64,000 nucleotides of DNA from an uncultured Bacteroidota bacterium (GCA_902826165.1 CADEDV010000006.1:10270-74269), one strand, 5' to 3'. Positions 6,444-59,046 are shown, counted from the first letter of the stretch. The notes: a model not told the origin generated them from the sequence alone. Numbers and translations: made by a program.

Positions 6444-6471
6444 TAGTTTAGTTTATAGATATAAAACAAAG

Positions 6472-6500
6472 AACCTTACCTCCTGGTAAGGTTTTTTTAT
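6472..6500 (+). terminator. intrinsic terminator after the yceI-like gene
   Basis: Stem aaccttacc/ggtaaggtt with loop tcct, followed by tttttatttt. Confidence 0.85.
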
Positions 6501-6519
6501 TTTGCTATACCTTCGGATC

Positions 6520-6975
6520 ATGAGTATAAGAAAACTGGAAAGCCGGAAAAAAATTGCCCTAGTAGCCCATGATCATAAGAAGGCTGATCTTATTGATTGG
6601 GCAATCTATAATAAAAAAGTCCTGAACAAGCATCGCTTGTTTGCCACTGGTACTACAGGCATATTATTGGAAACTGCACTCGATCAGTCAGTGACCAAAT
6701 TTCTGAGTGGTCCACTGGGAGGAGACCAGCAGATAGGTGCCCAGATCGCCGAAGGAAAAATTGATGTGCTTATCTTTTTCTGGGATCCCATGGAGGCCCA
6801 GCCTCATGATCCGGATGTAAAAGCATTATTACGTCTTGCTGCTACTTATAATATCCCTGTCGCCTGTAACAGGGCCACGGCAGATTTTATGTTTACTTCC
6901 CCGCTGATGCATGAAGATTATGATGCGATACTACCCGACTACTCGGCCTATTCAAACAGGAAATTGAAAAAATAA
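6520..6975 (+). CDS. mgsA: methylglyoxal synthase
   Basis: IALVAHDHKK, ATGTTG, GPLGGDQQIGA and DPMEAQPHDPDVKALLRLA are hallmark MgsA motifs. ATG at 6520. Confidence 0.9.
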   Translation: MSIRKLESRKKIALVAHDHKKADLIDWAIYNKKVLNKHRLFATGTTGILLETALDQSVTKFLSGPLGGDQQIGAQIAEGKIDVLIFFWDPMEAQPHDPDVKALLRLAATYNIPVACNRATADFMFTSPLMHEDYDAILPDYSAYSNRKLKK

Positions 6976-6976
6976 T

Positions 6977-9515: not shown

Positions 9516-11555
9516 ATGTCTTTTAAACTCTATGCTCCATTTCCCCCTGCCGGCGATCAGCCAGGTGCCATTCACCAGCTGACAGAAGCTGTTATACAGG
9601 GTGAAAAATACCAGACACTGCTGGGTGTAACAGGTAGTGGTAAGACTTTCACCATTGCCAATGTCATACAGAATACGCAACGGCCCACGTTAGTCCTGAC
9701 CCATAATAAAACGCTGGTAGCTCAGTTATATGGTGAATTCCGGCAGTTCTTTCCTGAAAATGCGGTTGAATATTTTGTCTCCTACTATGATTACTACCAG
9801 CCGGAAGCTTATATGCCGGTTAGTGATGTATATATTGAAAAAGATCTCAGTATCAATGATGAGCTGGATAAATTAAGGTTAAGGGCCACTTCCAGCTTAT
9901 TGAGTGGCCGCAGGGATATCATTGTAGTTGCTTCCGTGAGCTGTATATATGGTATGGGAAACCCTACCGATTATGAAAACGGGATCATCCGTATTAATAA
10001 AGGACAGCAAATTTCAAGACAGGGCTTTTTGCACTCGTTGGTTAATTCCCTTTATAACAGGACAACGCTGGAATTTAACCGGGGCACCTTCCGGGTAAAA
10101 GGTGATACTGTTGATATCAACCTTCCTTATGTTGATTACGGATACAGGATCACCTTCTTTGGAGATGAGATCGAGGAAATTGAAAGCATAGAAGTTATTA
10201 CCGGGAAAAGGATCGGGAAAATGGAGAATGCCGCTATTTTTCCTGCTAACCTGTATGTGGCTCCCAAGGACATCATGCAGCAGGTGATCTACGAGATACA
10301 GGATGAAATGACTGCACAGGTCGAATATTTTAAGAATACCGGGAAATTCATCGAAGCACAGCGGCTGAAAGAAAGAGTGGAATATGATCTTGAAATGATC
10401 AAAGAACTGGGTTATTGCAGTGGTATTGAAAATTACTCCCGTTTTTTTGACCGCAGAAGACCCGGTACCCGGCCATTCTGTTTGTTGGATTACTTCCCTA
10501 AAGATTTCCTGATGGTCATTGATGAAAGTCACCAGACCATTCCCCAGGTAAGTGGGATGTATGGTGGCGACAGAAGCCGGAAACTCATATTGGTTGACTA
10601 TGGCTTCCGTTTACCCTCTGCCTTAGATAACCGCCCGTTGAATTTTCATGAATTTGACTCCTTATTAAACCAAACCATTTTTGTTTCTGCTACGCCGGAT
10701 GATTTCGAGTTAGAAAAAACCGGCGGTGTGGTGGTGGAGCAGGTCGTCCGTCCAACAGGACTGCTTGATCCTCCCATACAGATCCGGCCCAGCGTAAACC
10801 AGATCGATGACCTGCTGGATGAGATTGATAAAACAGTGAAGAAAGGTGACAGGGTGTTGGTAACGACTTTGACAAAAAGGATGGCTGAAGAGATGGACAA
10901 ATACCTTCACCGTATTAATATCAAATCAAAATATATCCACAGCGAGGTTGATACATTGGAACGGGTGGAAATTCTCAGAGAATTAAGATTAGGCACTATC
11001 GACGTATTGGTGGGAGTAAACCTGTTGCGGGAAGGATTGGACCTGCCGGAAGTTTCTTTAGTTGCCATTCTGGACGCAGACAAAGAAGGTTTTCTGCGGA
11101 ATGAAAAATCGCTGACACAAACTGCGGGCCGGGCAGCCAGGAATGTAGATGGCTTTGTTATTTTCTATGCAGATAAAATGACAGAGAGTATGCAGAAAAC
11201 AATAGATGAAACAAACCGCCGCCGTGAAAAACAGGTCGCTTATAATATAGAACACAATATCACCCCCAGAACCGTAAAGAAAAGTAAAGAGCAGGTATTT
11301 GCACAAACATCAGTGCTTGATATCAAAGGATATGACCCCGCCAATCCTTATGCTATTGCCCCGGATGAAGATCTTGTTACTATTGCGGCGGAAGAGCAAA
11401 CAGAGTATAAAACGATACCACAGGCAGAAAAAGCTATTCAAAAAATTAAAAAGGAAATGGAGAAAGCCGCACGGGATCTTGACTTTATGGAAGCAGCCCG
11501 CCTTCGTGATGAGATGTTTTCCCTGCAAAAAAAACTGGAAGAGATGAAAAAATAA
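9516..11555 (+). CDS. uvrB: excinuclease ABC subunit B
   Basis: GVTGSGKTF Walker A, DESH box, helicase motifs (LVTTLTKRMAEE, VGVNLLREGLDLPEVSLV) and a C-terminal UVR domain (MEAARLRDEM). Confidence 0.97.
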   Translation: MSFKLYAPFPPAGDQPGAIHQLTEAVIQGEKYQTLLGVTGSGKTFTIANVIQNTQRPTLVLTHNKTLVAQLYGEFRQFFPENAVEYFVSYYDYYQPEAYMPVSDVYIEKDLSINDELDKLRLRATSSLLSGRRDIIVVASVSCIYGMGNPTDYENGIIRINKGQQISRQGFLHSLVNSLYNRTTLEFNRGTFRVKGDTVDINLPYVDYGYRITFFGDEIEEIESIEVITGKRIGKMENAAIFPANLYVAPKDIMQQVIYEIQDEMTAQVEYFKNTGKFIEAQRLKERVEYDLEMIKELGYCSGIENYSRFFDRRRPGTRPFCLLDYFPKDFLMVIDESHQTIPQVSGMYGGDRSRKLILVDYGFRLPSALDNRPLNFHEFDSLLNQTIFVSATPDDFELEKTGGVVVEQVVRPTGLLDPPIQIRPSVNQIDDLLDEIDKTVKKGDRVLVTTLTKRMAEEMDKYLHRINIKSKYIHSEVDTLERVEILRELRLGTIDVLVGVNLLREGLDLPEVSLVAILDADKEGFLRNEKSLTQTAGRAARNVDGFVIFYADKMTESMQKTIDETNRRREKQVAYNIEHNITPRTVKKSKEQVFAQTSVLDIKGYDPANPYAIAPDEDLVTIAAEEQTEYKTIPQAEKAIQKIKKEMEKAARDLDFMEAARLRDEMFSLQKKLEEMKK

Positions 11556-26351: not shown

Positions 26352-26786
26352 TTATCGCCATACACCAATAATAGCCCCCATAAGTGTTAATGCCACTAAC
26401 AGGTAACCACCATTAATAAATATATAGCTCGCTGACTTATGTTCAAATAAACCAACAATAGCGATACCACAAAATGGCCAGATACCAGAGAGAAAACCAG
26501 CAATAGCTCCCCAGGTAATATCGGTTTTTTGAGCACAGTTCCCTGTACATTCGGCTGGTGTATCTGCAAGATACATGGCCAGGTTAACTGCCATAAGTAA
26601 TGACAGTATAAAAGCGATGCCGTAGATTTTCGTGGCATTACCCTTTTTTACATCCTCTACCGTCATCCTGTTCTCACTCATCCAGGCATTACCAAATAAG
26701 GCAGGAGAATACCAAACGCCACCCAATACAAATGCAGAGATACCGGCTACTAATACAGCCAACCAGTTAATTGAAGACATGTCCAT
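26352..26786 (-). CDS. DUF1761-like membrane protein
   Basis: 144 aa with 4 TM helices. INWLAVLVAGISAFVLGGVWYSPALFGNAWM is typical of DUF1761. Confidence 0.6.
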   Translation of the reverse strand: MDMSSINWLAVLVAGISAFVLGGVWYSPALFGNAWMSENRMTVEDVKKGNATKIYGIAFILSLLMAVNLAMYLADTPAECTGNCAQKTDITWGAIAGFLSGIWPFCGIAIVGLFEHKSASYIFINGGYLLVALTLMGAIIGVWR

Positions 26787-26877
26787 AATAAGTGCTTTAG
26801 TTTATAACAGATGTTGTGATTCTAAACTAATTTCTAAACTTTACAGCACAAACGAAAGGCGAACCAAGCCGAAAAAA

Positions 26878-27948
26878 ATGCCGATAAAGGCCAGCAGTAT
26901 AGCGACAAAGCTTTTCAGCCAGCGGGAAAAGATAAATGATCTGGGTATCCGGGTCATCCTGGTTCCGTTCTTTGGTATAGCCATTCCACTGATTACCCGC
27001 ATGGTGCCGCATAACCAATTTACCAACTGGGAGATAAAATTTTCTTACCTCTACACTATCCTGATAGCGTTTGTGATTTATGAAGGGTCAAGGTTTTTAC
27101 ACTTCACACTGCGTACTTATTTTGACTGGTTTAATAAGCCGGTAAAAAAGATCGTCGCCCTTGTCATAACAATCCCCTTCTATTGTGTGCCTGTCAGTAT
27201 GCTGATGCTCGTGGGCTGGTACCATTTGTTCATGAATGGCATTGTTGACTGGAAAACTGTAAAACTCACTTCGTTGATTATTTTAATTGCTGTTTTCTTC
27301 CTGGTGAATCTTTATGAGACTGTCTTCCTCATCAGGGATTTAGCGAATGACCGGGTAACACAGGAACAACTGGAAAGAGCAAAAGCAGAAGCGGAGCTGG
27401 AGGCGCTTAAAAACCAGATCGACCCTCATTTTATTTTCAATTCGCTGAATACTCTCAGCCATTTGATTGATGATAAGCCTGAAAAGGCCCGGTTGTTTAA
27501 TGATAATCTTGCAGATGTCTATCGTTATATTCTACAAAACAAAGCCCGGGATTTAGTGCTACTCCGGGAAGAAGTCAATTTCCTGGAAAGTTATTTCCTT
27601 TTATTAAAGATTCGCTTTGAAAATGCTGTACAAATGCAAATAACAATACCTGAAGAAGCTATGGACCAATACCTGGTACCGCCCATTTCCCTGCAAATCC
27701 TGGCAGAAAATGCGATTAAGCACAATGAATTTTCAGAAGTTACTCCTTTGCTTTTTAAGGTCGAGATAAAAAATGAGGAGCTGATAATACATAACCCGGT
27801 ACGGAAAAAAACATTGCGGAGAGCTTCTTCCAAGATCGGGTTACAAAATCTGAAAGAAAGATATAAGCTGATCACCAACCAGGAAATTATTATTAAAGAA
27901 GAAGAAAATGACTTTACTGTAACATTACCTGTTTTAAAAATTACATAA
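26878..27948 (+). CDS. LytS/YehU-type sensor histidine kinase
   Basis: Membrane N-domain, then H-box LKNQIDPHFIFNSLNTL and N-box ENAIKHN (His_kinase/HATPase). The ORF-track start 26632 overlaps the opposite-strand gene, so the ATG at 26878 is preferred. Confidence 0.85.
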   Translation: MPIKASSIATKLFSQREKINDLGIRVILVPFFGIAIPLITRMVPHNQFTNWEIKFSYLYTILIAFVIYEGSRFLHFTLRTYFDWFNKPVKKIVALVITIPFYCVPVSMLMLVGWYHLFMNGIVDWKTVKLTSLIILIAVFFLVNLYETVFLIRDLANDRVTQEQLERAKAEAELEALKNQIDPHFIFNSLNTLSHLIDDKPEKARLFNDNLADVYRYILQNKARDLVLLREEVNFLESYFLLLKIRFENAVQMQITIPEEAMDQYLVPPISLQILAENAIKHNEFSEVTPLLFKVEIKNEELIIHNPVRKKTLRRASSKIGLQNLKERYKLITNQEIIIKEEENDFTVTLPVLKIT

Positions 27949-27949
27949 T

Positions 27950-28705
27950 ATGCGAGCTGTTATCATTGAAGATGAAAAACCTGCGGCTGAAAAATTAATC
28001 AAGGCCATACAAAAAACTCAATCAGCAATAGAGGTTGTAGCGGTATTAAATAGTATTAAAACATCTGTGGACTGGCTGCAAGAAAACCCAATGCCAGATC
28101 TTTTGTTTATGGACATAGAATTAAGTGATGGTCTTTCATTTAAAATATTTGAAAAAGTAAATATCAGCAGCCCGGTTATTTTCTGCACCGCTTTTGACGA
28201 ATACTGGCAGGAAGCCTTTGAACACAACAGTATTGATTACTTATTAAAGCCAGTAAAGCAGGATAAGCTGGAAACTGCCTTAAATAAATACGATAAATTA
28301 AAACAGCATTTTGCCTCCAGCTTTCAACACCTGATGCAATGGCAGCAGCAACCTGCCGGAACAGGCTACAAAAAAAGATTTCTGGTGAAAAGGGGCGTTG
28401 ATTATATAACAGTCAGAACAGAAGATATTGCTTATTTCTATGCCACTCACAAGCTGGTTTGTATGGTCGATAATAAAAACCAGAAATTTATTCTGGACCA
28501 ATCACTGGCAGATATTGAAAAACAATTGGATCCTTTACAATTTTACCGGGTCAACAGGAAATACCTGGTACAGCTTACCGCTATCAAAAAGATCAAAACC
28601 TATCCAAAGAGTAAACTACAACTGGAAATAGAGCCGGTTGTTAATGAAGAGGTGATCGTAAGCCAGGAAAATGTATCGGCTTTCAAAGAATGGATGGGTA
28701 GTTGA
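27950..28705 (+). CDS. LytTR-family response regulator
   Basis: Receiver domain (IIEDE, phospho-acceptor in LLFMDIELSD, LLKP) plus a C-terminal LytTR DNA-binding domain (FYRVNRKYLV). Confidence 0.9.
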   Translation: MRAVIIEDEKPAAEKLIKAIQKTQSAIEVVAVLNSIKTSVDWLQENPMPDLLFMDIELSDGLSFKIFEKVNISSPVIFCTAFDEYWQEAFEHNSIDYLLKPVKQDKLETALNKYDKLKQHFASSFQHLMQWQQQPAGTGYKKRFLVKRGVDYITVRTEDIAYFYATHKLVCMVDNKNQKFILDQSLADIEKQLDPLQFYRVNRKYLVQLTAIKKIKTYPKSKLQLEIEPVVNEEVIVSQENVSAFKEWMGS

Positions 28706-43950: not shown

Positions 43951-44047
43951 TAAAAACCGTTTGTCGCCTAAAAATGACCGTATGACGATATTACAAAACC
44001 ACCGTATACAAAAGGAGCCGGGGCTTCGTAATTTTATAACTGTTCAC

Positions 44048-45193
44048 ATGCAGCAGTATCCCTTCATATTCTCCGATGAAAGAAAATATCGCATCAGACG
44101 CCACCTTTATTTCTGGTTGTTCTGGTGGGTCTTTTTCAGTTTATTGTATGCCTATACTGCCGGGCTGAACTTGTTGCCCGATTCCCGCCGGTTGCCGGTA
44201 TCCACTGTTAACTCGATCTTTTTCATGGCACCTCATATGTTTTTGTCGTATTCACTGATGTACTTCGTGGTTCCGCAGTTTATACTTAAAGGAAAATATA
44301 AGTCGGGTGCTGCCCTTGTACTCCTGCTTTTTTTCGTTACTGCTTGCTTCTCCGCTGTGGTGGGAATGTATTTTCTTCCCGGGATCAGGGCCTGGCTTTT
44401 CCCCTATAATACTTCACACCCGGACAATGCCACTTTTTTCCTTTCATTGCTCGGCGGATTGCGGGGTGCTATCACCATCGGGGGACTGGCTGCATCCATC
44501 AAACTGATGAAATACTGGTATGTAAAAGAGCAACGAAACCTGCAATTACAAAAAGAGAATGTGGAAGCCCAGTTACAATTACTCAAAGCCCAGGTGCATC
44601 CACATTTTTTATTCAATACTTTAAATAATATCTATTCGTACACACAGAACACCGCCCCGGTGGCCGCTAAAATGGTAACAGGGTTATCGGACCTGCTCCG
44701 CTTCATGCTGTATGAATGTAACCAGCCGCTGGTTCCTTTGGCCAAAGAGTTAAAAATGATACAGGATTATATCAGCCTCGAAAAAATCCGGTATGGCAAC
44801 AAACTGGAGTTACATCTCGATCTGCCTGACGACACAAACGATACTCATATTGCACCATTACTGCTGCTACCCTTGGTAGAAAACTGTTTTAAACATGGCA
44901 CCAGTAATATGATTGAGCAGCCCTGGGTGAATTTACAAATTAGCCTCCGGGGAACACAGATGCAGATGAAGCTGATGAACGGAAAAACAAATCAGGCATC
45001 AAAAGAAACAGCCAGTACCGGAATAGGAATAAAAAATGTAGAAAAAAGGTTAGCATTGCTGTATCCCGGCAAGCATGAATTGAATATCCTGAATGAACAA
45101 GATGTCTTTATTATTAACCTGAAAGTGGAACTGGAATATCAAAAAAGTAGCTCCCCCATAAATACAACCAAACAGGAAATGGCGCATGCCTGA
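44048..45193 (+). CDS. LytS/YehU-type sensor histidine kinase (second copy)
   Basis: Multi-TM N-domain, H-box LKAQVHPHFLFNTLNNI, N-box ENCFKHG and G-box GIGIKNV. Start is uncertain (43982 or 44048). Confidence 0.8.
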   Translation: MQQYPFIFSDERKYRIRRHLYFWLFWWVFFSLLYAYTAGLNLLPDSRRLPVSTVNSIFFMAPHMFLSYSLMYFVVPQFILKGKYKSGAALVLLLFFVTACFSAVVGMYFLPGIRAWLFPYNTSHPDNATFFLSLLGGLRGAITIGGLAASIKLMKYWYVKEQRNLQLQKENVEAQLQLLKAQVHPHFLFNTLNNIYSYTQNTAPVAAKMVTGLSDLLRFMLYECNQPLVPLAKELKMIQDYISLEKIRYGNKLELHLDLPDDTNDTHIAPLLLLPLVENCFKHGTSNMIEQPWVNLQISLRGTQMQMKLMNGKTNQASKETASTGIGIKNVEKRLALLYPGKHELNILNEQDVFIINLKVELEYQKSSSPINTTKQEMAHA

Positions 45194-45902
45194 TTCAATG
45201 ATCATAAAATGCCTGGTAGTCGACGATGAGCCTCCTGCAAGGGAGATCATCCGCCGCTACATTGAACAAATGCCCACACTGGAGCTGGTGGCAGAGTGTG
45301 CCAATGCCATCCAGGCTTTTACTGTTTTACAACAACAACCTGTTGATCTTATGTTTTTAGATATCAGGATGCCGCAGTTAAATGGGAATGATTTTTTGAA
45401 AACACTGAAAAATCCGCCGAAAGTAATTTTCACCACCGCCTATACCGAATATGCGTTAGAGGGCTATGAATTGGATGTGGTGGATTACCTGATGAAGCCT
45501 ATTCCCTTTGACCGGTTTTTAAAAGCAGTGAATAAAGCATTTCAACATACTGCTGCAAAACAAGAAGGGTTACAGGTAAATGAAGAAAAAAAATCCGAAT
45601 CCTTTGTGTATTTCCGGGCCGACCGGAAGATGGTGAAAGTAATGCTGCAGGATATTCTTTATATCGAAAGCATGAAGGATTATATAAAAGTAATGACGGC
45701 TGCAGGGACCATCATTACCAAACAATCTATCAGCTCGGTGGAAGCTATGTTACCGGAAAAAGATTTTGTAAGGGTGCACCGCTCGTACATCGTTTCCCTG
45801 GATAAAATAAAAACCTTCACTTCCGAACTGATTGAAATAGAGAAAGCTGAGATCCCGATTGGGAAATTATACCGGAATGCTGTACTGAAAATGCTTGGAT
45901 AG
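45186..45902 (+). CDS. LytTR-family response regulator (second copy)
   Basis: Receiver domain (CLVVDDE, LMFLDIRMP, YLMKP) plus LytTR domain (FVRVHRSYIVSL). Its start overlaps the kinase stop by 8 nt. Confidence 0.9.
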   Translation: MPDSMIIKCLVVDDEPPAREIIRRYIEQMPTLELVAECANAIQAFTVLQQQPVDLMFLDIRMPQLNGNDFLKTLKNPPKVIFTTAYTEYALEGYELDVVDYLMKPIPFDRFLKAVNKAFQHTAAKQEGLQVNEEKKSESFVYFRADRKMVKVMLQDILYIESMKDYIKVMTAAGTIITKQSISSVEAMLPEKDFVRVHRSYIVSLDKIKTFTSELIEIEKAEIPIGKLYRNAVLKMLG

Positions 45903-50875: not shown

Positions 50876-50898
50876 TTAGCGAAAGAATACTAAAAGAA

Positions 50899-50923
50899 AA
50901 GGCGGTACAGGTTGTACCGCCTT
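50899..50923. terminator. bidirectional hairpin terminator
   Basis: Stem aaggcggtaca/tgtaccgcctt with a short loop, flanked by A- and T-rich tracts between convergent genes. Confidence 0.75.
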
Positions 50924-50949
50924 TCTTATTAACCATTAAAACTATACCA

Positions 50950-51861
50950 CTATTTTTTCAGGCTCAGGCTCCTGTTAATAGTAAAGCCAAAAGCAAGGTT
51001 ATGAAAATCAAGTTTACTGCTGTTTCGTGCCAGCTGATCGATATTAGAGGAGCTGGTAGTGTTACCAATATAGAACTGGAATAAGTGACCACCGGTATTG
51101 AATTCCATACCTACAGAAAGCAGGTCGGGTTTGTAATTCACGATATTACCGTTTTTATCCAGCAGGTTCTCATACATATTGAACTGGCGGGCATATTCAA
51201 ACGTGATATTCTTGTTAGCAGTCAGCTTATATTTTCCGCCAAGGCCCATAGAGAATACAGAATTACTGTTGTTGATGCCATAAGGGACCACATTAAAGTA
51301 AACCAATGTTGGCATTAACTGCAGGGAAAATTTATCAGAGAACTTACGGGCTACCAATAACTGGTGCATGAAAGAATATTTATTCCATCCGAGAGAAACA
51401 GAAGCATCTTTGGCAGCATTTACGTTGAACATAGAATACCAGCCCACAGATACAGGAATATTTTTCGCACCGGTTTGCTGGCGCAGAATTTTGAATTTAG
51501 CAAAGCCTTCAAAACGTGACCTTCCGGCAGCAGCTAATCCCAGGTTCATATAAGGGGTGGGAGAGTAATCAAATGACAGATATGTATACGCAAGACCGGA
51601 GTTTAAACCCAGTAAACCAGCCATATTATCCTGTGTGGAACCACCTTCGGGCCACAAGGGGCTGAAATGGTGAGATATTAAGAACTGGAGACTTCCTTTA
51701 CTTACGATCTCCGTACTCTGCATATTAATGATCCGGGTAGAATTGAAAGTGGCCCGGGTAAATTTTTGTTTAGGAGCTTCTGTAGCTTCGGGAGTATCCT
51801 GTGCAATGGTAGTTGCCCAACAACCCAATCCTAAAACGAGAAGCGAAAATATTTTTTTCAT
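50950..51861 (-). CDS. small outer-membrane beta-barrel protein (DUF5777-like)
   Basis: 303 aa with a signal peptide. Alternating-hydrophobicity strands run throughout, and GGHLFQFYIGNT lies near the C-terminus. The family name is from memory and needs an HMM check. Confidence 0.65.
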   Translation of the reverse strand: MKKIFSLLVLGLGCWATTIAQDTPEATEAPKQKFTRATFNSTRIINMQSTEIVSKGSLQFLISHHFSPLWPEGGSTQDNMAGLLGLNSGLAYTYLSFDYSPTPYMNLGLAAAGRSRFEGFAKFKILRQQTGAKNIPVSVGWYSMFNVNAAKDASVSLGWNKYSFMHQLLVARKFSDKFSLQLMPTLVYFNVVPYGINNSNSVFSMGLGGKYKLTANKNITFEYARQFNMYENLLDKNGNIVNYKPDLLSVGMEFNTGGHLFQFYIGNTTSSSNIDQLARNSSKLDFHNLAFGFTINRSLSLKK

Positions 51862-51907
51862 AAAACCTGTTTTATTTTTAAAACAATCTTTTTCTTAATG
51901 ATACTAA

Positions 51908-52525
51908 TTACTGGGGTTGCCCCTGGTTGATCCACTCTTTGAATTTATTGATGGTACAAGTGGTAAGACTTAATGCGCCACCGGGGTGTCCCTGGCTACC
52001 ACCACTGTTCATAATAGTAGTAAGAACAGTTTTCTCAGCCACCATTTTATTATAATCCAATGCTACTGCGATACCACCATGGCAGGTAGATCCTTTACAA
52101 CTGGTATTATAGATCGGTAAAATATCTACTGTATAACGCAGGCTACCACTTACAGTACAACCAGCACCATCATCATAAGGATCTCCCTGGTCAATCCATT
52201 GCTTAATGATGTTCTTCTCATTAGGAGCAAAATCAATAGCACCACCACCTGGGTGAATACCGCCTTCCACCCATGCTTTAAAAACAGATACACGGGAAAG
52301 AATCGCATCATAAAATACCGTATCAAAATGAGAGAATTGTACAGCCCTGGTGGCTATACCATTATTATGACATCCGCAGGGCCCGGCTGTAATGATGGGT
52401 GCCACTTCACTTCTGAAGGATACCCGCGGTAAGGCAATAATATCTTCTTTATTCTGGTAACAGGATGACAGCGCATAAACGATCATCGTGGTCATCATTG
52501 CTGTTATTAATATTTTTGTTTTCAT
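51908..52525 (-). CDS. lipoprotein with two Planctomycete-cytochrome-c-like (PSCyt1-like) domains carrying non-canonical Cys motifs
   Basis: Lipobox ALSSC. Domain 1 is APIITAGPCGCHNNG...IIKQWIDQG. Domain 2 is ILPIYNTSCKGSTCHGG...FKEWINQG. No CXXCH is present. Confidence 0.6.
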   Translation of the reverse strand: MKTKILITAMMTTMIVYALSSCYQNKEDIIALPRVSFRSEVAPIITAGPCGCHNNGIATRAVQFSHFDTVFYDAILSRVSVFKAWVEGGIHPGGGAIDFAPNEKNIIKQWIDQGDPYDDGAGCTVSGSLRYTVDILPIYNTSCKGSTCHGGIAVALDYNKMVAEKTVLTTIMNSGGSQGHPGGALSLTTCTINKFKEWINQGQPQ

Positions 52526-52557
52526 AAACCTGTAGTTTTTTGTAATGATTGATTGGG

Positions 52558-53748
52558 TTAGCGTCTGATGATGTTTCCTGTTTTCCTGTATTTGAAAATA
52601 CCGGCATTATTGACACCATATTTCCACACATCCGGCACATTAGGATCAGCAAAGTACCAGGCTTTGATCAGGGCCACTTCATGCGGTTTCAAACCACCAT
52701 CTCCATATGCCATATCACCCTGGTGTGATGATGCAAATACGCCAGTAGATGGGTTTGCCAGCACTACTGTTGAATCAACTCTTGACACCATAGAGCTTGT
52801 TACATTCAGATAATTTGCTCTTGCATAATATTGTGTAAGCGTTACAGGATCTGTATATTGAACAGATGAATTACTCCTGGCACTTTTCGGATACATAATA
52901 TCCATCAGTATATCATCATAATTCTGCAGAGGTCCTCTTGTACTGGAAGCAGAACGTGGAGTGGTAAGAGTTTTCCAGGGCCTGAAACTTGCATTAGCAA
53001 TAGTATCCCCATAGAATTTTTTTACACTGTCTTTATAAGAGGTCCATACCTGGTTCAATAATGTTTGATTGGAAACCTGGCAGTATAACGTAACGGAACC
53101 AGTAACGGGGTTGATATAAGTAAAGGTGCTGGTATCCGCTGTGGTCAATGGCCCAAACAAACCTTTCCTGGCCCATCCACCGGTAGCCGTTGCCTGGTTA
53201 TGACAATTGGCAGATCCGCAACCATCTGCAATAAGCCTGATAGCGGCTGGTCTGAAATCGGCCAGATCAGGTCTTTCTTTAGCACCATTTAATATCCAGT
53301 TATAAATAAGGCCTTTGTCAGAAGTATTCAATTCATGATTGGAAGCAACAGGGGGCATTGCTTTATCAAAATCATTGGTAGTGATGAACTCCCACAATTT
53401 GCTTCCCTGGGGATTGCCCGGAGTCACATACTTCATGATCTCAGCATAAGTATCAAACTTAGGTGCGATAGGGCCACCATGACAGTTAGAAGTACCGCAG
53501 TACTCATGAATAACAGTTTGTACACCCCGGTATTTGATAACGTCATTTACATCTGGCGTAAGATCAGAAGGGCTTACGGTGTTGCTTTCATAAAACGAAG
53601 CATAGACAGTTGAGTCAGCAGAACCCGTAAAAGACCTGTTAAGGCCTTTTACAATATCTCCTGATTTCGTACACTGGAAAACGGTAGTTGCGAGAAACAC
53701 ACCACAAACAAAGAGAACCACCGTTTGAATAGCTGAAACCTTTTTCAT
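52558..53748 (-). CDS. lipoprotein with PSCyt1-like domains bearing C-x4-CH motifs
   Basis: Signal/lipobox TVFQC. VIHEYCGTSNCHGGP...PGNPQGSKLWEFI...MPP...LIYNWILNGA follows the PSCyt1 pattern. A second CGSANCH is followed by a roughly 200-aa insertion, then GDMAYGDGGLKPHEVALIKAWY. Confidence 0.6.
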   Translation of the reverse strand: MKKVSAIQTVVLFVCGVFLATTVFQCTKSGDIVKGLNRSFTGSADSTVYASFYESNTVSPSDLTPDVNDVIKYRGVQTVIHEYCGTSNCHGGPIAPKFDTYAEIMKYVTPGNPQGSKLWEFITTNDFDKAMPPVASNHELNTSDKGLIYNWILNGAKERPDLADFRPAAIRLIADGCGSANCHNQATATGGWARKGLFGPLTTADTSTFTYINPVTGSVTLYCQVSNQTLLNQVWTSYKDSVKKFYGDTIANASFRPWKTLTTPRSASSTRGPLQNYDDILMDIMYPKSARSNSSVQYTDPVTLTQYYARANYLNVTSSMVSRVDSTVVLANPSTGVFASSHQGDMAYGDGGLKPHEVALIKAWYFADPNVPDVWKYGVNNAGIFKYRKTGNIIRR

Positions 53749-53830
53749 AAAAAGCTAGTTTAACTTATTGAAATGTTGATGCTGATAAGAACTCATCTTT
53801 AAAATGCAATGTCAAAACTATCCCGGTGTA

Positions 53831-53961
53831 GTTGACAGTCTCATGACAAGAGACTGTTTGAAATATGACTTTAGTCACACAAGCTCCTAATGATAATCAA
53901 GATCAATGCATTTGTGACTTATCTCACTTAGAATCTTGACTCCTGTCATGAGAATGTCAAC
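53831..53961. promoter_or_regulatory. nested inverted repeats in the divergent promoter region
   Basis: gttgacagtctcatgaca (53831-53848) and tgtcatgagaatgtcaac (53944-53961) are reverse complements with one mismatch. An internal 8-bp palindromic hairpin acagtctc/gagactgt lies at 53835-53857, and tagtcaca/tgtgactt half-sites lie between. Confidence 0.4.
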
Positions 53962-54017
53962 GACTCATAAATAAGTTGCATTGTCTTTTACATTCTATAA
54001 ACACAAACCGGTTATAT

Positions 54018-54245
54018 ATGGGAAACAATAAGAAACCAGGTAACAAATCCCGCCGGGATTTTTTATCCCTCTTCATTTCAGCTGATAAAAAAACAGCCCC
54101 TGCTGAAATGGTAAAAATGCTGACAGCAGATGGCAAACTGGTTGAAGTAGACAAAGCTGTTCTGGATGAACTCACTAAGAAGCAGAAGGCTACAAATCAA
54201 CAAATTTTTGACTGGATGAAAAACCCTTCTAAAGAAAACAGCTGA
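54018..54245 (+). CDS. small protein with a twin-arginine-like N-terminus, paralogous to the N-terminal region of the adjacent FeS protein
   Basis: 75 aa from ATG 54018. KSRRDFLSLF...VKMLTADGKLVEVDKAVL parallels KGRRDFIKTA...VKLLSPNGEIVEIDSAYL in the next gene. Confidence 0.5.
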   Translation: MGNNKKPGNKSRRDFLSLFISADKKTAPAEMVKMLTADGKLVEVDKAVLDELTKKQKATNQQIFDWMKNPSKENS

Positions 54246-54278
54246 TAACCCTAATGCTCCTTATTAATAATAAGCACC

Positions 54279-55247
54279 ATGAAACAAGAAGAAATAAATG
54301 ACAAAGGCCGCCGGGATTTTATCAAGACTGCTGCTATCGCAACAGTTGCAGCTACTGCCTGTGGCAGCCTGGCTTGTTCCTGCTCTTCAAAAAAAGCAAC
54401 TACAGGAGATAAGGTAAAACTCTTATCACCCAACGGAGAGATCGTAGAGATCGACTCTGCCTACCTGAAACATGAGGAACATATGGCCATTGTCTCCAAA
54501 CTGGAAGCCAGGGAAGGTATTGCCGGTAAAAAATTCGTGATGGTGGTGGACCTGGCCAGTTGCAAAAATGCAAGAAGCTGCGTCAGTGCCTGTCAGAAAT
54601 GGCACTATCGTCCGAAAGAAACCGAATGGCTGACTGTAAAACTTTTACAGGATAGTGAAAAAGCGGCCCCTTACTGGTTCCCCAAACAATGCTTCCATTG
54701 TGACAACCCTCCTTGCGTAAAGGTTTGTCCCGTTGATGCCACTTTCAAAAGACAAGATGGTCTTGTATTGATAGATAATGAACGTTGTATTGGCTGTAAG
54801 TTCTGTATGGCAGCCTGCCCCTACTCTACCCGTGTATTTAACTGGGATGAACCCGATCAGCCTTTTGATATAAGAAGTTTGACCTCTAACCCCGAAACGG
54901 GTATTCCTGCTAAAGTGGGTACCGTGGAGAAATGTGATTTCTGTCCTGATCGTGCCCGGGAAGGCCTGCTCCCGCCTTGTGTGGAAGCTTGTCCTAATGG
55001 CGTATTCTATTTTGGAGATGAAAATGAAGATACGGTCAGCAATGGTCTTGAAACAGTCAGCTTCAGCCAATTGATCAAAGACAGGGCAGCTTACCGCTAC
55101 CAGGAAGAGCTTGGTACCAAACCAAGGGTCTATTACCTGCCGCCAAAAGACAGGGCATTCCCTGTGGAAAAAGGATACCAGGATGCTGATTCAGCTATCA
55201 AGGAAAGATTTAAAGATTACAAGGATCTGCTTGAAGCAAAAGAATAA
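54279..55247 (+). CDS. Tat-exported 4x[4Fe-4S] ferredoxin-type subunit (NrfC/PsrB/DsrO-like)
   Basis: Tat signal GRRDFIKTAAIATVAA. Cys clusters are CKNARSCVSAC, CFHCDNPPCVKVCP, CIGCKFCMAACP and CDFCPDR...CVEACP. Confidence 0.9.
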   Translation: MKQEEINDKGRRDFIKTAAIATVAATACGSLACSCSSKKATTGDKVKLLSPNGEIVEIDSAYLKHEEHMAIVSKLEAREGIAGKKFVMVVDLASCKNARSCVSACQKWHYRPKETEWLTVKLLQDSEKAAPYWFPKQCFHCDNPPCVKVCPVDATFKRQDGLVLIDNERCIGCKFCMAACPYSTRVFNWDEPDQPFDIRSLTSNPETGIPAKVGTVEKCDFCPDRAREGLLPPCVEACPNGVFYFGDENEDTVSNGLETVSFSQLIKDRAAYRYQEELGTKPRVYYLPPKDRAFPVEKGYQDADSAIKERFKDYKDLLEAKE

Positions 55248-55286
55248 GCAAACCCATTCTTCAACTTTCTCAATGAATACTTAATT

Positions 55287-56627
55287 ATGGAACTCAATAC
55301 ATATCAACAGGAAGCTTTCGATTATCAGCGTAAGAATATCGAAACATATGGCAAAAGAGCCTGGGGCTGGACCATCTTTTATGTGCTCTGCATTCTCGTG
55401 GGCTTATACGCATTATACCTGCAGATTGCCAAAGGACATGGTGTAACAGGAATGAGAGACAATGTGGTTTGGGGTCTGTTCATCGTCAACTTTATCTTCT
55501 TTATCGGGCTCAGTTATGCAGGTGCCATCATTGCCGGTATCCTTCACTTATCCAAAGTAACCTGGGGTAAACCCATTATACGGCTTGCCCAGTTCATGAC
55601 ACTGATCTCCGTGATCGTAGGACCGATTTTTATTCTGCTTTGTGTGGGCCGCTTTGACAGGATGCACCATTTATTTATTTATCCAAGAATACAATCCCCA
55701 CTTACCTGGGATGTGATGGCTGTTGTTACCTTCTTTGCGGGTAGTGTCCTGTTTCTTTACCTGGCACTTATTAAAGATTTCTCTGTGTACCGTGATGCCA
55801 AACTGGATATTCCGAAATGGAAACAAAAATTGTATAAGATACTTGCATTAGGTTATCGTGGCGCTGCCAGCCAGAAAAGACACTTACTGATCTCGCAAAA
55901 CCTGATGGCGATCATCATGATCCCGCTGTCCATTGTTGTTGCCTCTATTCTTTCCTGGATATTTGGTATGACATTGAGGCCAGGCTGGCACAGTACTATC
56001 TTCGGACCTTACTTTGTTTTAGGGGCTGTTTATTCTGGTTGTGGTTTGCTGATCGTGGCCATGTGGTTTTACAGGAAAATGTACAAACTGGATTATTATT
56101 TTACAGACCGCCATTTTAAATACCTCGGGTATATTATGCTGGTGCTGGCCGCCGGTTATGGTTATTTTACTTTCTCCGAATATTTTACCGGTTGGTTTGG
56201 CTCCGAAAAATGGGACAGCGAACTGATCCATAAATTATTCAGCCCTGCTGAGTATGGCTGGTGGACATTCTTTGCCAATTTCGCGGGCATCGTATTACCG
56301 ATTGCTATTGTTGCTATTCCTGCCACCCGAAAACCAGGTCCTATCACGTTAGTGGCATTCATTATGGTAATCGCCATGTGGATAAAACGTTACCTCATCA
56401 TTGTTCCTACACTGGAAACAACTTTATTACCAATGCAGGATACCAGAGCAGAGTATGTAAAATATGCTGCCACCTGGCCTGAATGGGCATTGACCATTGC
56501 AGGTATTGCCACTTTCCTGCTATTCTTTACCGTGATGTCAAAATTTGTAACAGTTGTACCGGTTTCCGGGTTAGAAGATACACATACACATCATGAACAA
56601 CACCAGTTACAACACGAACATCATTAA
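55287..56627 (+). CDS. NrfD/PsrC-family integral membrane quinone-interacting subunit
   Basis: 446 aa with about 10 TM helices. The N-terminal WG...F.....G.......Q...G...TGM...V.WGL.I..F.FFIG.S.AG pattern is typical of NrfD/ActC/HmcC. The C-terminal tail is His-rich. Confidence 0.9.
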   Translation: MELNTYQQEAFDYQRKNIETYGKRAWGWTIFYVLCILVGLYALYLQIAKGHGVTGMRDNVVWGLFIVNFIFFIGLSYAGAIIAGILHLSKVTWGKPIIRLAQFMTLISVIVGPIFILLCVGRFDRMHHLFIYPRIQSPLTWDVMAVVTFFAGSVLFLYLALIKDFSVYRDAKLDIPKWKQKLYKILALGYRGAASQKRHLLISQNLMAIIMIPLSIVVASILSWIFGMTLRPGWHSTIFGPYFVLGAVYSGCGLLIVAMWFYRKMYKLDYYFTDRHFKYLGYIMLVLAAGYGYFTFSEYFTGWFGSEKWDSELIHKLFSPAEYGWWTFFANFAGIVLPIAIVAIPATRKPGPITLVAFIMVIAMWIKRYLIIVPTLETTLLPMQDTRAEYVKYAATWPEWALTIAGIATFLLFFTVMSKFVTVVPVSGLEDTHTHHEQHQLQHEHH

Positions 56628-56668
56628 GCAACAAACCAGGAAAGTACAACCTGCTAAAAAGATAGTAT

Positions 56669-57622
56669 ATGAAACAAGCAATAACTAAAATAACCAGCCC
56701 GGGATTGACCAGGCAACTGTTATTATTTGCAGGAGTCATTTTGTGTTTATTGTCTGCAGCCCCGGCTATTGCGCAAGCTGACAGCACTGCACAACAACCC
56801 GCAGCAGAAGCTCCTGTTGCTGAAGAAGAAGAACTGATATCACCATCTGTTGAATTGATCAGTATTCAGAAAGCTGATAAATCTGTTGATCTTAAGATAG
56901 CCGTTAAAGCAAAGATTGAGAAAAAGATGCGGAAAATGTACGGCCTTAAGGTCAATGTTTTCCAGGTCACTGACTCTGCAGAACAGGAACTCGGCTCTGT
57001 AATTACCGACAGGAATGGCCTGGCTGTTTTTACTGTAAAACCAGAACAAGTTGTTGCTAACGCAGAAGGAATGCTTCATTTCAAAGCAGTACTGGGTCCT
57101 GTTAAAAAAATGGAAAGTACGGAAGGAGAAGTAACTGTGAAAAGAGCATTGCTCACCATCACCCCGGTAAAAGAAGATTCATTGTATTCTGTACAAGTAA
57201 AACTGGTTGATCTTGCTACGGGTGAAGAAACTCCTGTTCCTGAAGCAGCCCTTGGTATTTTTGTTAAACGTTCCTTCAACCCGTTAAAAATCGGGGAGAT
57301 TACCACCGATGAGAATGGTGAAGGCAGTTCTGAAATAGCTAATAATCTGCCCGGTGATGCCAAAGGAAATATCACCCTGCTGGCCCGGCTGGATGAAAAT
57401 GAAACGTATGGTAACCTGGAAGCTGCCGTTGTTCAGCAATGGGGCTTGCCTGTATCGGATAAAATTGAAGATCAGCCAAGAGCTTTATGGAGCTCACATC
57501 CTCCATTGTGGATGTTGATCACTTTTATTATCTTAATGCTGGCTGTGTGGGGACACTATATTGTGATTGTTTACGAATTATTCAGGTTAAGAAAAGAACA
57601 GCCGCATGCAACCAACGTATAG
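56669..57622 (+). CDS. exported repeat protein with a C-terminal TM anchor (Ig/CarboxypepD_reg-like repeats)
   Basis: Signal peptide, acidic linker, and about three beta-rich repeats (TDRNGLAVFTV, TDENGEGSSEI). Terminal TM is HPPLWMLITFIILMLAVWGHYIVIVY. Confidence 0.5.
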   Translation: MKQAITKITSPGLTRQLLLFAGVILCLLSAAPAIAQADSTAQQPAAEAPVAEEEELISPSVELISIQKADKSVDLKIAVKAKIEKKMRKMYGLKVNVFQVTDSAEQELGSVITDRNGLAVFTVKPEQVVANAEGMLHFKAVLGPVKKMESTEGEVTVKRALLTITPVKEDSLYSVQVKLVDLATGEETPVPEAALGIFVKRSFNPLKIGEITTDENGEGSSEIANNLPGDAKGNITLLARLDENETYGNLEAAVVQQWGLPVSDKIEDQPRALWSSHPPLWMLITFIILMLAVWGHYIVIVYELFRLRKEQPHATNV

Positions 57623-57653
57623 TATAACTCTATCTATTTAATAAGCAAAATCA

Positions 57654-58064
57654 ATGAAAATGAAAAAGAATGTAATTGTTATGATAGCTGGCCTATTTGC
57701 TATCGGTTTACTGGCCTTTGTGCCCAAAAACAACACACAGGACCCCTGGCCTGTTCCTGATGCAGCCAAAAACAAAACCAACCCGCTGAAAGGAAATGCA
57801 GAATCTGTTGCAGATGGAAAAACACTCTATAACCAGCATTGCAAATCCTGCCATGGTACAAAAGGTAAAGGTGATGGCCCTAAAGCTTCCCAGTTAGATA
57901 CGGATTGCGGCGATTTTACAAAAGCTTCCTTCCAGTCGCAAACCGACGGAGCCCTTTTCTATAAGACATTTGAAGGACGTAAAGACATGCCTGCCTACAA
58001 AAAGAAAATTCCTGATGCAAATGACATCTGGGCAATCGTAAATTATATGAGGACCTTGAAATAA
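57654..58064 (+). CDS. class I monoheme c-type cytochrome
   Basis: Signal/anchor peptide, canonical CKSCHG heme motif and a distal Met candidate (RKDMPAY). 136 aa. Confidence 0.85.
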   Translation: MKMKKNVIVMIAGLFAIGLLAFVPKNNTQDPWPVPDAAKNKTNPLKGNAESVADGKTLYNQHCKSCHGTKGKGDGPKASQLDTDCGDFTKASFQSQTDGALFYKTFEGRKDMPAYKKKIPDANDIWAIVNYMRTLK

Positions 58065-58082
58065 ATAATTGTTTCAGTTATT

Positions 58083-58110
58083 AAAACCACTCCACGGAGT
58101 GGTTTTTTTA
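58083..58110 (+). terminator. intrinsic terminator after the cytochrome c gene
   Basis: Stem aaaccact(c)/(g)agtggttt followed by ttttttatt. Confidence 0.8.
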
Positions 58111-58197
58111 TTATTCCTGTACCTGCCGCTGACCGTATATATATTTTTGTATGCTGCTAATGGTCACAGCCACTACATTTATACCCGGCTATCATTT

Positions 58198-59046
58198 ATG
58201 CAGCATATTGAATTTTTTCATACCGACCACTTCGAAACAAACTACCACCGGGTGCCGCCACCGGCTGCGCTCAACCATTTCATTGATTTTTTCTGGGAAA
58301 CCAAATTTGGTCCGTTGTGGAAAGAATATCCTAAAGGTTTTTCCGATGCACAGTTTCCGAATATCGGTTACACCTATATCATTAACCTGGGTACCCCTTT
58401 CATTATGCAGGTGGCTGATAAGAAATTCAGCATGAAGACCGATTGTTTTTTACCCCGGTATAATGCCATTGAATGTTTTCATAAACCAGGCAATCATTTA
58501 TTCGGTATCAAGTTCCGTGTTTCCCCGGTACTCTACGAGAAGAAGATCAACTTTGCAGAATATAAAAGTTATATTTTTCCTCTCAGTTATTTACTGGATC
58601 ACCTTATCATTAATAAGATCAAAAAAGCCAGCTCCTTTACTGAAAGAATGGTTATTGTGTCTGATTATTTTACCAGCCTGCTGCATAAACAGGAGGGCTC
58701 TTTACAACAGGTCAATATTGTCAGTAGCATTATGGAACGTTGCATCCGGGAAAATGATTTTACGGTTTCATTAGAAAAATTAGCCGCCCGCCACAATATA
58801 TCGGTTCGTACCCTGCAACGTTATTTTGAGACCTGTACCGGCATCAGCACCAAGCAGGCTTTGCAGGTGATGCGGATCCGCAAAGCCACTGCTCATCTTG
58901 CCGGTTCACCCGGTGATTTTCATTATTCTTTATACAATTATTACGACCATAGTCATTTTTATAAACACCTGAAACAATTCCTGCAAAAAAATACATTGAA
59001 GAACCTGCAGCCGCACCTGGAATTGTTGAAAACATTGCATCGTTGA
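58198..59046 (+). CDS. AraC-family transcriptional regulator
   Basis: C-terminal double HTH (ISVRTLQRYFETCTGISTKQALQVMRIRKA). The ATG at 58198 lies downstream of the terminator, and the ORF-track start 58069 would include that terminator. Confidence 0.8.
   Translation: MQHIEFFHTDHFETNYHRVPPPAALNHFIDFFWETKFGPLWKEYPKGFSDAQFPNIGYTYIINLGTPFIMQVADKKFSMKTDCFLPRYNAIECFHKPGNHLFGIKFRVSPVLYEKKINFAEYKSYIFPLSYLLDHLIINKIKKASSFTERMVIVSDYFTSLLHKQEGSLQQVNIVSSIMERCIRENDFTVSLEKLAARHNISVRTLQRYFETCTGISTKQALQVMRIRKATAHLAGSPGDFHYSLYNYYDHSHFYKHLKQFLQKNTLKNLQPHLELLKTLHR

Follow-up and report, generated by a model that had tools for sequence, protein, structure and literature searches.

The window analysed here is a 64,000-nt stretch of DNA from an uncultured Bacteroidota bacterium (GCA_902826165.1, CADEDV010000006.1:10270-74269), and the gene cluster under study occupies its positions 50,950-59,046. 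Two divergent operons make up the cluster. The plus arm encodes what appears to be a reduced relative of alternative complex III (ACIII), with an NrfD-family membrane subunit, an iron-sulfur (FeS) subunit and a monoheme cytochrome c, and the minus arm encodes a DUF5777 outer-membrane β-barrel together with two lipoproteins of probable cytochrome c-like domains. In related genomes the synteny of the two arms is near-obligate, and a common operator lies between them. We propose that the cluster specifies a co-regulated two-operon electron transfer chain of Chitinophagales, which would lead from menaquinol through FeS clusters and cytochrome c to outer-membrane cytochromes and on to an acceptor; we consider the case for this reading about evenly balanced.

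An annotation made earlier by a model from the sequence alone (the original prediction) had listed nine genes at this locus, and all nine open reading frames (ORFs) are present where it placed them. Families were assigned to the window proteins by Pfam and NCBIfam searches. The unit that is conserved among relatives consists of eight genes and excludes the AraC regulator at its plus-strand end.

Linkage of the two arms in Chitinophagales

Related loci were collected by a genome scan with NrfD, which returned 33 loci, all from metagenome-assembled genomes of Chitinophagaceae or Saprospiraceae, and by a metagenome scan with an alignment of the immunoglobulin (Ig)-domain subunit of the plus arm, which added 80 further loci. 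Within the module, cytochrome c lies 3' of the Ig-domain subunit in 88/89 loci and NrfD lies 5' of it in 81/83. For linkage between the arms we counted those loci in which the sequence reaches 1.5 kb or more beyond the 5' end of the module; of these 56, 55 carry a lipoprotein and DUF5777 cassette there. The cassette is of the window type in 45 loci, of an EB_dh type in five and of both types in another five, and one locus has none. The window type comprises the genes of the 396-aa lipoprotein (lipo396), the 205-aa lipoprotein (lipo205) and the barrel, divergent from the module; the EB_dh type lies on the same strand as the module and joins a DUF5777 barrel with a small cytochrome carrying CX4CH and a lipoprotein that has an EB_dh heme domain. 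The eight cluster genes stay together while the flanking genes vary and belong to unrelated housekeeping families only, with asparaginase-like, OmpA-like, MFS, phosphoenolpyruvate carboxykinase-like and methylmalonyl-CoA mutase-like families within 6 kb, each in at most 25 loci. The gene-neighbourhood comparison that had been suggested as a check of the original prediction thus came out in favour of co-conserved arms. Homology searches with the barrel and the Ig-domain subunit returned, among the matches listed, close relatives only (at least 58-66% identity), none with an annotation.

The arrangement of the linked genes differs among families and strains. In Saprospiraceae the barrel and a cytochrome lipoprotein belong to one operon with the NrfCD genes, all on one strand, and this operon goes on with ResB/CcsA, a six-heme lipoprotein resembling MtrC/MtrF and another DUF5777 barrel (L030, 7177-12186; L029, 4980-9828). 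ResB/CcsA, the System II cytochrome c synthase, may here be a dedicated lyase for non-canonical heme motifs. One near-identical relative (L003, 99% NrfD identity) carries, between the genes of lipo396 and the small twin-arginine signal protein, a further cassette of 3 kb (5916-8511), which the window lacks. Besides a second DUF5777 barrel it encodes a small CX4CH cytochrome and a lipoprotein of the EB_dh kind; it occurs also in L012, L017, L041 and L049 and amounts to a presence/absence polymorphism among close strains. Some loci have a second, divergent NrfC-NrfD-Ig module (55%, 32% and 25-32% identity), which is not ActF, between the first module and the common cytochrome c (L049, 10979-14336; L099, 5747-9010; L043; L071; L124).

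Look-ups anchored on the barrel found the module in two of three cases; the third is L120, where outer-membrane cassettes occur without NrfCD, and the linkage of the arms is therefore strong but not obligate. In two metagenome contigs, L037 (~9877-10001) and L054 (~10001), the minus arm abuts the Ig-domain subunit gene, and the small twin-arginine signal gene, NrfC and NrfD are gone; lipo396 or the barrel is truncated in these contigs, and the junctions are either real deletions or misassemblies. At one locus (L092, 27-4354) HD, HAD, DUF5690 and FAD-oxidoreductase genes lie directly 5' of an EB_dh-type cluster, an arrangement that recalls phosphonate utilisation and may be a coincidence.

The plus arm as a probable minimal relative of ACIII

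The integral membrane subunit (55287..56627, plus strand) was predicted to be NrfD-like, which is borne out by its Pfam match (PF03916, E = 4.5e-26) and can be stated more exactly: searched with phmmer against the PDB, it aligns over its full length, query residues 21-429, with ActC of ACIII (6f0k_C from Rhodothermus, E = 2.7e-50; 8k9e_C, 1e-48; 6btm_C from Flavobacterium, 2e-40). In the same search ActF is a weak match and PsrC gives none. Hydropathy scanning finds nine hydrophobic segments above a strict threshold and a weaker one that is likely the tenth, a count consistent with the ten helices of ActC. We therefore refer to this protein as the ActC-like, presumably quinol-interacting, subunit.

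The FeS subunit (54279..55247, plus strand; 322 aa) carries a twin-arginine translocation (Tat) signal and Fer4 domains only (Fer4_11 in Pfam). Its best NCBIfam match is DsrO, at 187.4 bits and thus under the 200-bit cut-off, and its matches in the PDB are PsrB (2vpw_B, E = 6e-29), the C-terminal domain of ActB (6f0k_B, 8e-20) and also ArrB; only the C-terminal part of ActB is covered, residues 797-966 of 1039. The original description as a Tat-exported, four-cluster NrfC/DsrO-like ferredoxin holds for the Tat signal and the polyferredoxin character; the number of ligand cysteines, in contrast, is 15 and not 16, because the first motif is without its second cysteine. The resulting 3+4+4+4 pattern suggests, by analogy, one [3Fe-4S] and three [4Fe-4S] clusters. 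ActB itself is reported with one [3Fe-4S] and three [4Fe-4S] clusters. At the end of the Tat signal (54360-54385, residues 28-35) lies a conserved ACGSxxCSC sequence that is a candidate lipobox; if it is one, the FeS subunit could be a Tat-exported lipoprotein.

The monoheme cytochrome c of the original prediction, at the 3' end of the operon (57654..58064, plus strand), is of class I and has an N-terminal hydrophobic segment, a CKSCH motif and a Cytochrom_C match in Pfam (E = 7e-13); DMPAY likely supplies the methionine ligand. Besides cytochrome c552 (E = 1e-18), its PDB matches include ActE (6f0k_E, 1e-9; 6lod_E, 3e-7; 6btm_E, 3e-5), which makes it ActE-like.

Two further subunits accompany these three. 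The 317-aa protein encoded at 56669..57622 (plus strand) was described earlier as a membrane-anchored repeat protein, and its AlphaFold2 model (predicted local distance difference test score, pLDDT, 77) agrees with that: a signal peptide is followed by an acidic disordered linker, then by two Ig-like β-sandwiches and a C-terminal membrane helix in which WGHY is invariant (alignment A1). It belongs to no Pfam family, and Foldseek returned generic Ig-like, macroglobulin and adhesin folds only and no known respiratory subunit. The operon opens with a protein of ~75 aa with a twin-arginine signal (SRRDFL; 54018..54245, plus strand), a predicted gene that proved real, being conserved upstream of NrfC in related loci. 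It is paralogous to the N-terminus of NrfC, the FeS subunit, with 34% identity over 56 aa (E = 9e-7, BLASTP).

Neither a molybdopterin nor a multiheme gene is found within the window cluster: pentaheme ActA, the molybdopterin-like ActB1 domain, ActD and ActF have no counterpart in it, and it contains zero ORFs with multiple CXXCH motifs and zero second NrfD genes. Clustering of flanking ORFs in the related loci yielded no catalytic subunit that recurs within 6 kb of either cluster end. The catalytic partner reported as missing is thus missing indeed; the picture of an orphan NrfCD pair, however, gives way to that of a plus arm with ActC-, ActB2- and ActE-like parts, which we regard, on the strength of these homologies, as a probable reduced or minimal relative of ACIII. 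ACIII is a quinol:cytochrome c oxidoreductase, the normal output of which is cytochrome c.

The minus arm: barrel and lipoproteins

The predicted 303-aa β-barrel (50950..51861, minus strand) is confirmed as a member of DUF5777: with a signal peptide in front, it matches positions 1-246 of the 247-position profile PF19089 with 205 bits (cut-off 23.1, E = 1.4e-60). Its AlphaFold2 model has 12 strands at a pLDDT of 67, and the nearest folds found by Foldseek are channels of 12-14 strands, led by the COG4313 channel 4rl8 (TM-score 0.53), FapF (0.51) and a KdgM-type protein (0.48), followed by Tsx and OmpG. Judged by this model, the barrel is probably too narrow to house a cytochrome. The model has ~12 strands against 26 in MtrB, and the porin-cytochrome picture of the Mtr style therefore does not transfer to it.

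Both lipoproteins are encoded by genes separate from the barrel, which itself has no Cys-x-x-Cys-His motif. The original prediction had them built of Planctomycete-cytochrome-like domains. In lipo396 (52558..53748, minus strand) the first domain matches PSCyt1 with 24.4 bits, just over the Pfam cut-off of 22. CX4CH occurs twice in the protein, with AMPP after the first copy, and these motifs are kept across 23 orthologues; AMPP could be the source of a methionine axial ligand. In contrast, lipo205 (51908..52525, minus strand) has no Pfam match. It consists of two repeats which in the 23 orthologues show invariant CGCH(N) and HPGG, and then CKGxTCHGG and GHPGG. The two domains align in hhalign with a family of small cytochrome c lipoproteins (~125 aa), domain 1 at a probability of 94% and E = 1.4e-7 and domain 2 at a probability of 98% and E = 9.5e-13, and the profile of this family in turn matches cytochrome c6 (3dr0_A, E = 3e-6). 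Within the small family CXXCH, CX3CH and CX4CH fall in one alignment column, and both cysteines, the histidine and a Met-Pro are invariant. Significance against the PDB was reached by the family profile only; searches with the single lipoprotein sequences gave nothing significant (FoxE, E = 1.3 for lipo396; 4rlr, E = 0.76). By profile homology, then, both lipoproteins appear to consist of class-I cytochrome c-like domains.

The lipoproteins do not contain the canonical CXXCH. Their heme-type motifs are three CX4CH and one CX1CH (CGCH), invariant across the 23 orthologues, so that the two proteins would carry four putative hemes. Documented heme-binding motifs include CX3CH, CX4CH and the contracted CXCK (PMC11492766). 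The lipobox cysteine of lipo205 is followed by acidic residues (CYQNKED), and CTKSGD is also seen among window lipoproteins; both resemble what we take to be the Bacteroidota lipoprotein export signal, and a surface-exposed position of the lipoproteins is possible.

The common control region and the operon ends

The start of the small twin-arginine signal protein is probably the ATG at 54018, so that the intergenic region measures 269 bp (53749..54017), the size originally predicted for the promoter region between the arms. By chance the motif TGTCA-N6-TGTCA would be expected 0.13 times in the 64-kb window; it is found twice, both times in this region, and the two copies lie on opposite strands. 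These candidate operator sites, TGTCATGAGA[A/C]TGTCA, are mirrored direct repeats at 53833-53848 (minus strand) and 53944-53959 (plus strand), and each lies 12 nt upstream of a TA-box in a conserved alignment block: CAAAACTA at 53813-53820 for the minus arm (TAGTTTTG on the minus strand) and TAAGTTGC at 53972-53979 for the plus arm. The Bacteroidota -7 consensus is TAnnTTTG, which the TAGTTTTG box fits. Of 78 exact operator matches in the related loci (1.25 Mb in all), 77 fall in promoter regions of the cluster, with the consensus TGTCAT-[GA]A[AG]A[TC]-TGTCA. Taken together, these sites indicate that the arms are probably co-regulated through common operators.

The E. coli pstS Pho box TGTCATAAAACTGTCATA (PMC10294691) is close to the operator consensus. 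We take PhoB-like control of the cluster as a lead only. PhoB as the regulator could not be confirmed: in L019 and L041 the sites stand in another orientation to the gene they precede, and the two-component systems of the window are of the LytTR type. Two pairs of a LytS-type histidine kinase and a LytTR response regulator lie at 26632-28705 and 43961-45902, the second ~5 kb from the cluster, and no evidence was found in the window that ties either pair to it. A Fur-box-like stretch in the intergenic region of the window, TAATGATAATCA, was dropped as it is not conserved in the alignment.

Terminator-like hairpins close both operons, on the minus strand at 50897..50925 (13-bp stem, then a T run) and on the plus strand at 58083..58106 (10-bp stem, then a T run). 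The latter stands 5' of the AraC/HTH_18 regulator gene, the ORF of which (58069..59046, plus strand) has its ATG at 58198, beyond the terminator. The original prediction of a terminator followed by an AraC gene is correct for both elements, with the qualification that AraC stands outside the unit: the gene lies past the terminator and only the nearest relatives have it, so that it is neither a component of the system nor, as we see it, the regulator of the cluster.

DUF5777 beyond Chitinophagales

DUF5777 is a large family, with 1016 clusters at 50% identity (E ≤ 0.001) and more than 7000 at 90% identity. A profile search for distant barrels was the only search that opened new gene contexts, eight of them in about three independent synteny groups. 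In 8/8 of these unrelated contexts a YceI protein and cytochrome-like lipoproteins adjoin the barrel, a multi-domain PSCyt1 protein is found with them in 7/8 and a small OB-fold protein in most, and NrfCD occurs in 0/8. The cassette (L114-L119, L121 and L122, on Bacteroidota-like contigs) consists of the multi-domain PSCyt1 protein, a ~125-aa cytochrome c lipoprotein, DUF5777, YceI and a tRNA_anti-like OB-fold protein; no description of it was found in the literature searched. Neither the YceI-type cassettes nor L120 have the TGTCA-N6-TGTCA motif. On two contigs a YceI-type cassette adjoins a Y_Y_Y histidine kinase and a LytTR response regulator. Two family members have unusual architectures: in the distant member P0304 (456 aa) an N-terminal CXXCH (LNCTECH) and a Reeler domain are fused to the DUF5777 barrel, and P0242 (615 aa) is a tandem double DUF5777. 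Because barrel and heme-type lipoprotein are paired across contexts, we consider this pairing the general feature and the link to NrfCD a specialisation of Chitinophagales.

A possible electron route and its alternatives

We infer trans-envelope electron transfer from the combination of the two arms, and with it heme binding, surface location, direction of flow and the existence of an acceptor. In the proposed chain the ActC-like subunit would bind and oxidise menaquinol, the electrons would pass through the FeS clusters on the periplasmic face to the monoheme cytochrome c, and from there to the four putative hemes of the outer-membrane lipoproteins, which would hand them to an acceptor at the outer membrane or, if the lipoproteins are exposed, at the cell surface. 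The barrel would anchor or organise the lipoproteins, or might conduct a small substrate or product. An argument for a redox connection is that three kinds of heme-type cassettes are found on one NrfCD module, which is hard to explain otherwise. The original prediction had likened the locus to a porin-cytochrome-style conduit; co-conserved arms, common operators and cytochrome-like lipoproteins speak for that likeness, but a barrel of ~12 strands cannot enclose a cytochrome.

Several points weigh against the proposed chain. Heme on the lipoproteins is deduced from their sequences, and among contracted motifs CXCK is documented as heme-binding but CX1CH is not. Neither a terminal enzyme nor an acceptor was found. 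A modelled 12-strand barrel would leave electrons no obvious way through the outer membrane, except with lipoproteins exposed at the surface, for which the acidic residues after the lipobox cysteine are the sole argument. Most DUF5777 cassettes elsewhere are accompanied by YceI and not by NrfCD, so the outer-membrane module can work alone, and the locus L120 (GCA_032654705.1, JAULAZ010000003.1, 368-9918) has three outer-membrane cassettes with no NrfCD within 9 kb: one of the window type, one of the EB_dh type, and a third in which a DUF5777 barrel is accompanied by a small cytochrome with CX4CH, a YceI-like lipoprotein and a polytopic membrane protein. In addition, His/Met cytochromes usually have a high potential and fit poorly with the reduction of ferric minerals, and the direction of flow is not readable from sequence.

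Electrons could also run the other way, with the outer-membrane cytochromes oxidising an external or periplasmic donor, for instance Fe(II), reduced humics or reduced compounds of sulfur or phosphorus, and passing electrons to cytochrome c and on to an oxidase, or uphill by way of the ActBC-like module to menaquinone. ACIII-like clusters have been proposed to act in neutrophilic iron oxidation, which fits such a reversal, and the fusion of CXXCH, Reeler domain and DUF5777 recalls Cyc2. Mono- or diheme His/Met cytochromes at the outer membrane also resemble the Cyc2/Cyc1 logic of iron oxidation (PMC10734462), and the only notable PDB match of lipo396 is the iron oxidase FoxE, which at E = 1.3 is not significant. 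A downhill route to an oxidase, however, needs no quinol module, and yet this module is the most tightly linked part of the cluster; moreover, heterotrophic Chitinophagales have no evident need for reverse electron flow, and every characterised ACIII is a quinol oxidase. We therefore regard reversed flow as unlikely, though worth keeping in mind. Unlikely, too, is a division of labour in which the plus arm serves as an extra menaquinol:cytochrome c oxidoreductase for oxidases and the minus arm, merely co-regulated with it, takes up or binds small nutrients or metals. As a mini-ACIII the plus arm would be self-sufficient, the barrel resembles small channels for solutes or hydrophobic compounds (COG4313, Tsx, KdgM), outer-membrane cassettes without NrfCD exist (L114-L122, including L120), and an operator resembling Pho boxes would suit a nutrient-scavenging regulon. 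Against this division stand the 55/56 linkage, which exceeds ordinary co-regulation, and the fact that the PSCyt-like, the EB_dh plus small cytochrome and the MtrC-like multiheme cassettes are all of heme type and all sit on one NrfCD module.

The lipoproteins might alternatively be degenerate cytochrome folds without heme, with motifs that bind a metal or form redox disulfides kept in their redox state by NrfCD and cytochrome c. All their motifs are non-canonical (CX4CH three times, CX1CH once), lipo205 has His-Pro-Gly-Gly where Met-Pro would be expected, and single sequences give no significant cytochrome match in the PDB. On the other hand, the two cysteines, the histidine and a distal Met or His are invariant, homologous domains of sister proteins have canonical CXXCH in the same column, Saprospiraceae clusters include ResB/CcsA heme lyase genes, and CX4CH is an established heme motif (PMC11492766); we hold a loss of heme to be improbable. 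That the arms are unrelated neighbours, brought together by chance or kept by vertical synteny, is contradicted by the comparative data and hardly credible. Every sampled locus comes from one order, Chitinophagales, and part of the synteny is thus inherited, but the eight genes remain together while their flanks turn over, the linkage is kept in divergent as well as co-directional layouts, cassette types are swapped or added at one position, and the operator is common to both arms. The route from menaquinol to the outer membrane remains the reading we prefer.

Novelty and significance

Each component is of a known kind: subunits of the ACIII/NrfCD family, cytochromes of class I, and small barrels of the outer membrane. 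The novelty lies in how they are combined, in the minimal architecture of the ACIII, in heme motifs of variable length and in a barrel-cytochrome cassette found phylum-wide. In the literature searched we found no description of the window gene set and no mention of DUF5777, and a review of the NrfD family has no such module among those it covers. Electron transfer at the outer membrane or outside the cell is well documented for Proteobacteria and Desulfuromonadia but, to our knowledge, has hardly been described for Bacteroidota, the dominant polymer degraders of soil, freshwater and activated sludge. The cluster is a candidate for a chain with a mini-ACIII as its entry, a periplasmic carrier and an outer-membrane end in the large, uncharacterised DUF5777/PSCyt1-like family. 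Its module offers a natural minimal ACIII for asking which subunits suffice for quinol:cytochrome c activity, and class-I cytochrome domains with CX1CH, CX2CH, CX3CH and CX4CH bear on the specificity of System II maturation.

We further speculate, as an idea that we ourselves consider unlikely, that DUF5777 barrels and lipoprotein cytochromes with variable motifs form a so far unrecognised Bacteroidota-wide outer-membrane redox module, which Chitinophagales would have tied through a mini-ACIII to their menaquinone pool and put under a PhoB-like switch, delivering electrons to the surface under nutrient stress, for example for the reductive dissolution of phosphate bound to iron or manganese. 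If the operator were PhoB-dependent, respiratory electron flow would be tied to phosphorus scavenging, and such a delivery of electrons to the surface would represent a new class of extracellular electron transfer conduits in abundant aerobic heterotrophs of soil and wastewater.

Comparison with known systems

In its layout of an inner-membrane quinone module, a periplasmic cytochrome and a barrel with lipoprotein or surface cytochromes, the cluster resembles MtrCAB, MtoAB, PioAB, PCC3, Uet and Cyc2. The likeness extends to a Saprospiraceae relative that pairs an MtrC-like multiheme lipoprotein with a DUF5777 barrel and, for Cyc2, to the one DUF5777 protein fused to a CXXCH-bearing domain (P0304). 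There is, however, no sequence homology to the porin-cytochromes or Cyc2, and the function of the window cluster is a predicted one. The window barrel with its ~12 strands cannot enclose a heme protein, unlike MtrB with 26 and Cyc2 with 16 strands, and the lipoproteins are predicted single-heme class-I-type domains with CX4CH or CX1CH instead of multiheme chains. Accordingly, the cluster contains neither a large Mtr/Mto-type barrel (at least 20 strands) enclosing a multiheme cytochrome nor a decaheme gene, and the window barrel is not a Cyc2-type fusion with a heme domain.

YceI-like and c-type cytochrome domains are combined in Cbp2D and Cbp2E of Cellvibrio and Saccharophagus, which have been proposed to supply electrons to surface enzymes. 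The wider DUF5777 cassette similarly joins YceI-family and small c-type cytochrome domains outside the inner membrane; in contrast to Cbp2D/Cbp2E, these are separate genes, a barrel is present and there is no carbohydrate-binding module, and the window cluster differs further by having no YceI gene.

Among NrfCD systems, those of the molybdoenzyme type (Psr, Ttr, Arr and Dms, with NrfCD/PsrBC) have an adjacent catalytic subunit, which is absent from the window cluster and does not recur within 6 kb of the cluster ends in the related loci. NosGH of clade II nos clusters is an NrfCD pair without molybdopterin or multiheme partner. NosGH with NosC1/C2 and the DsrOP pair share with the window module an NrfC/NrfD-type pair that has no molybdopterin subunit and delivers, or in the window module would deliver, electrons to periplasmic c-type cytochromes, and DsrO and DsrP of DsrMKJOP are the best NCBIfam matches of the window proteins. 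A Dsr assignment was nevertheless rejected, as DsrO reaches 187.4 of 200 bits and DsrP 75.8 of 350, and DsrM, DsrK and DsrJ genes are absent from the cluster. Unlike in NosGH and DsrOP systems, neither DsrMKJ nor nos genes are nearby, and the window NrfD is closer to ActC.

The closest comparison is thus ACIII (ActABCDEF) of Bacteroidota, Rhodothermus and Chloroflexi. Like it, the window module has an NrfD that is ActC-like over its full length, a periplasmic Tat-exported FeS protein corresponding to the C-terminal domain of ActB with cysteines in a 3+4+4+4 pattern, and an ActE-like monoheme cytochrome c that is likely the electron output. Unlike ACIII, it does without ActA, the ActB1 domain, ActD and ActF, it has an Ig-domain subunit and a small Tat-signal protein as additions, and its genetic partner is an outer-membrane cassette instead of an oxidase.

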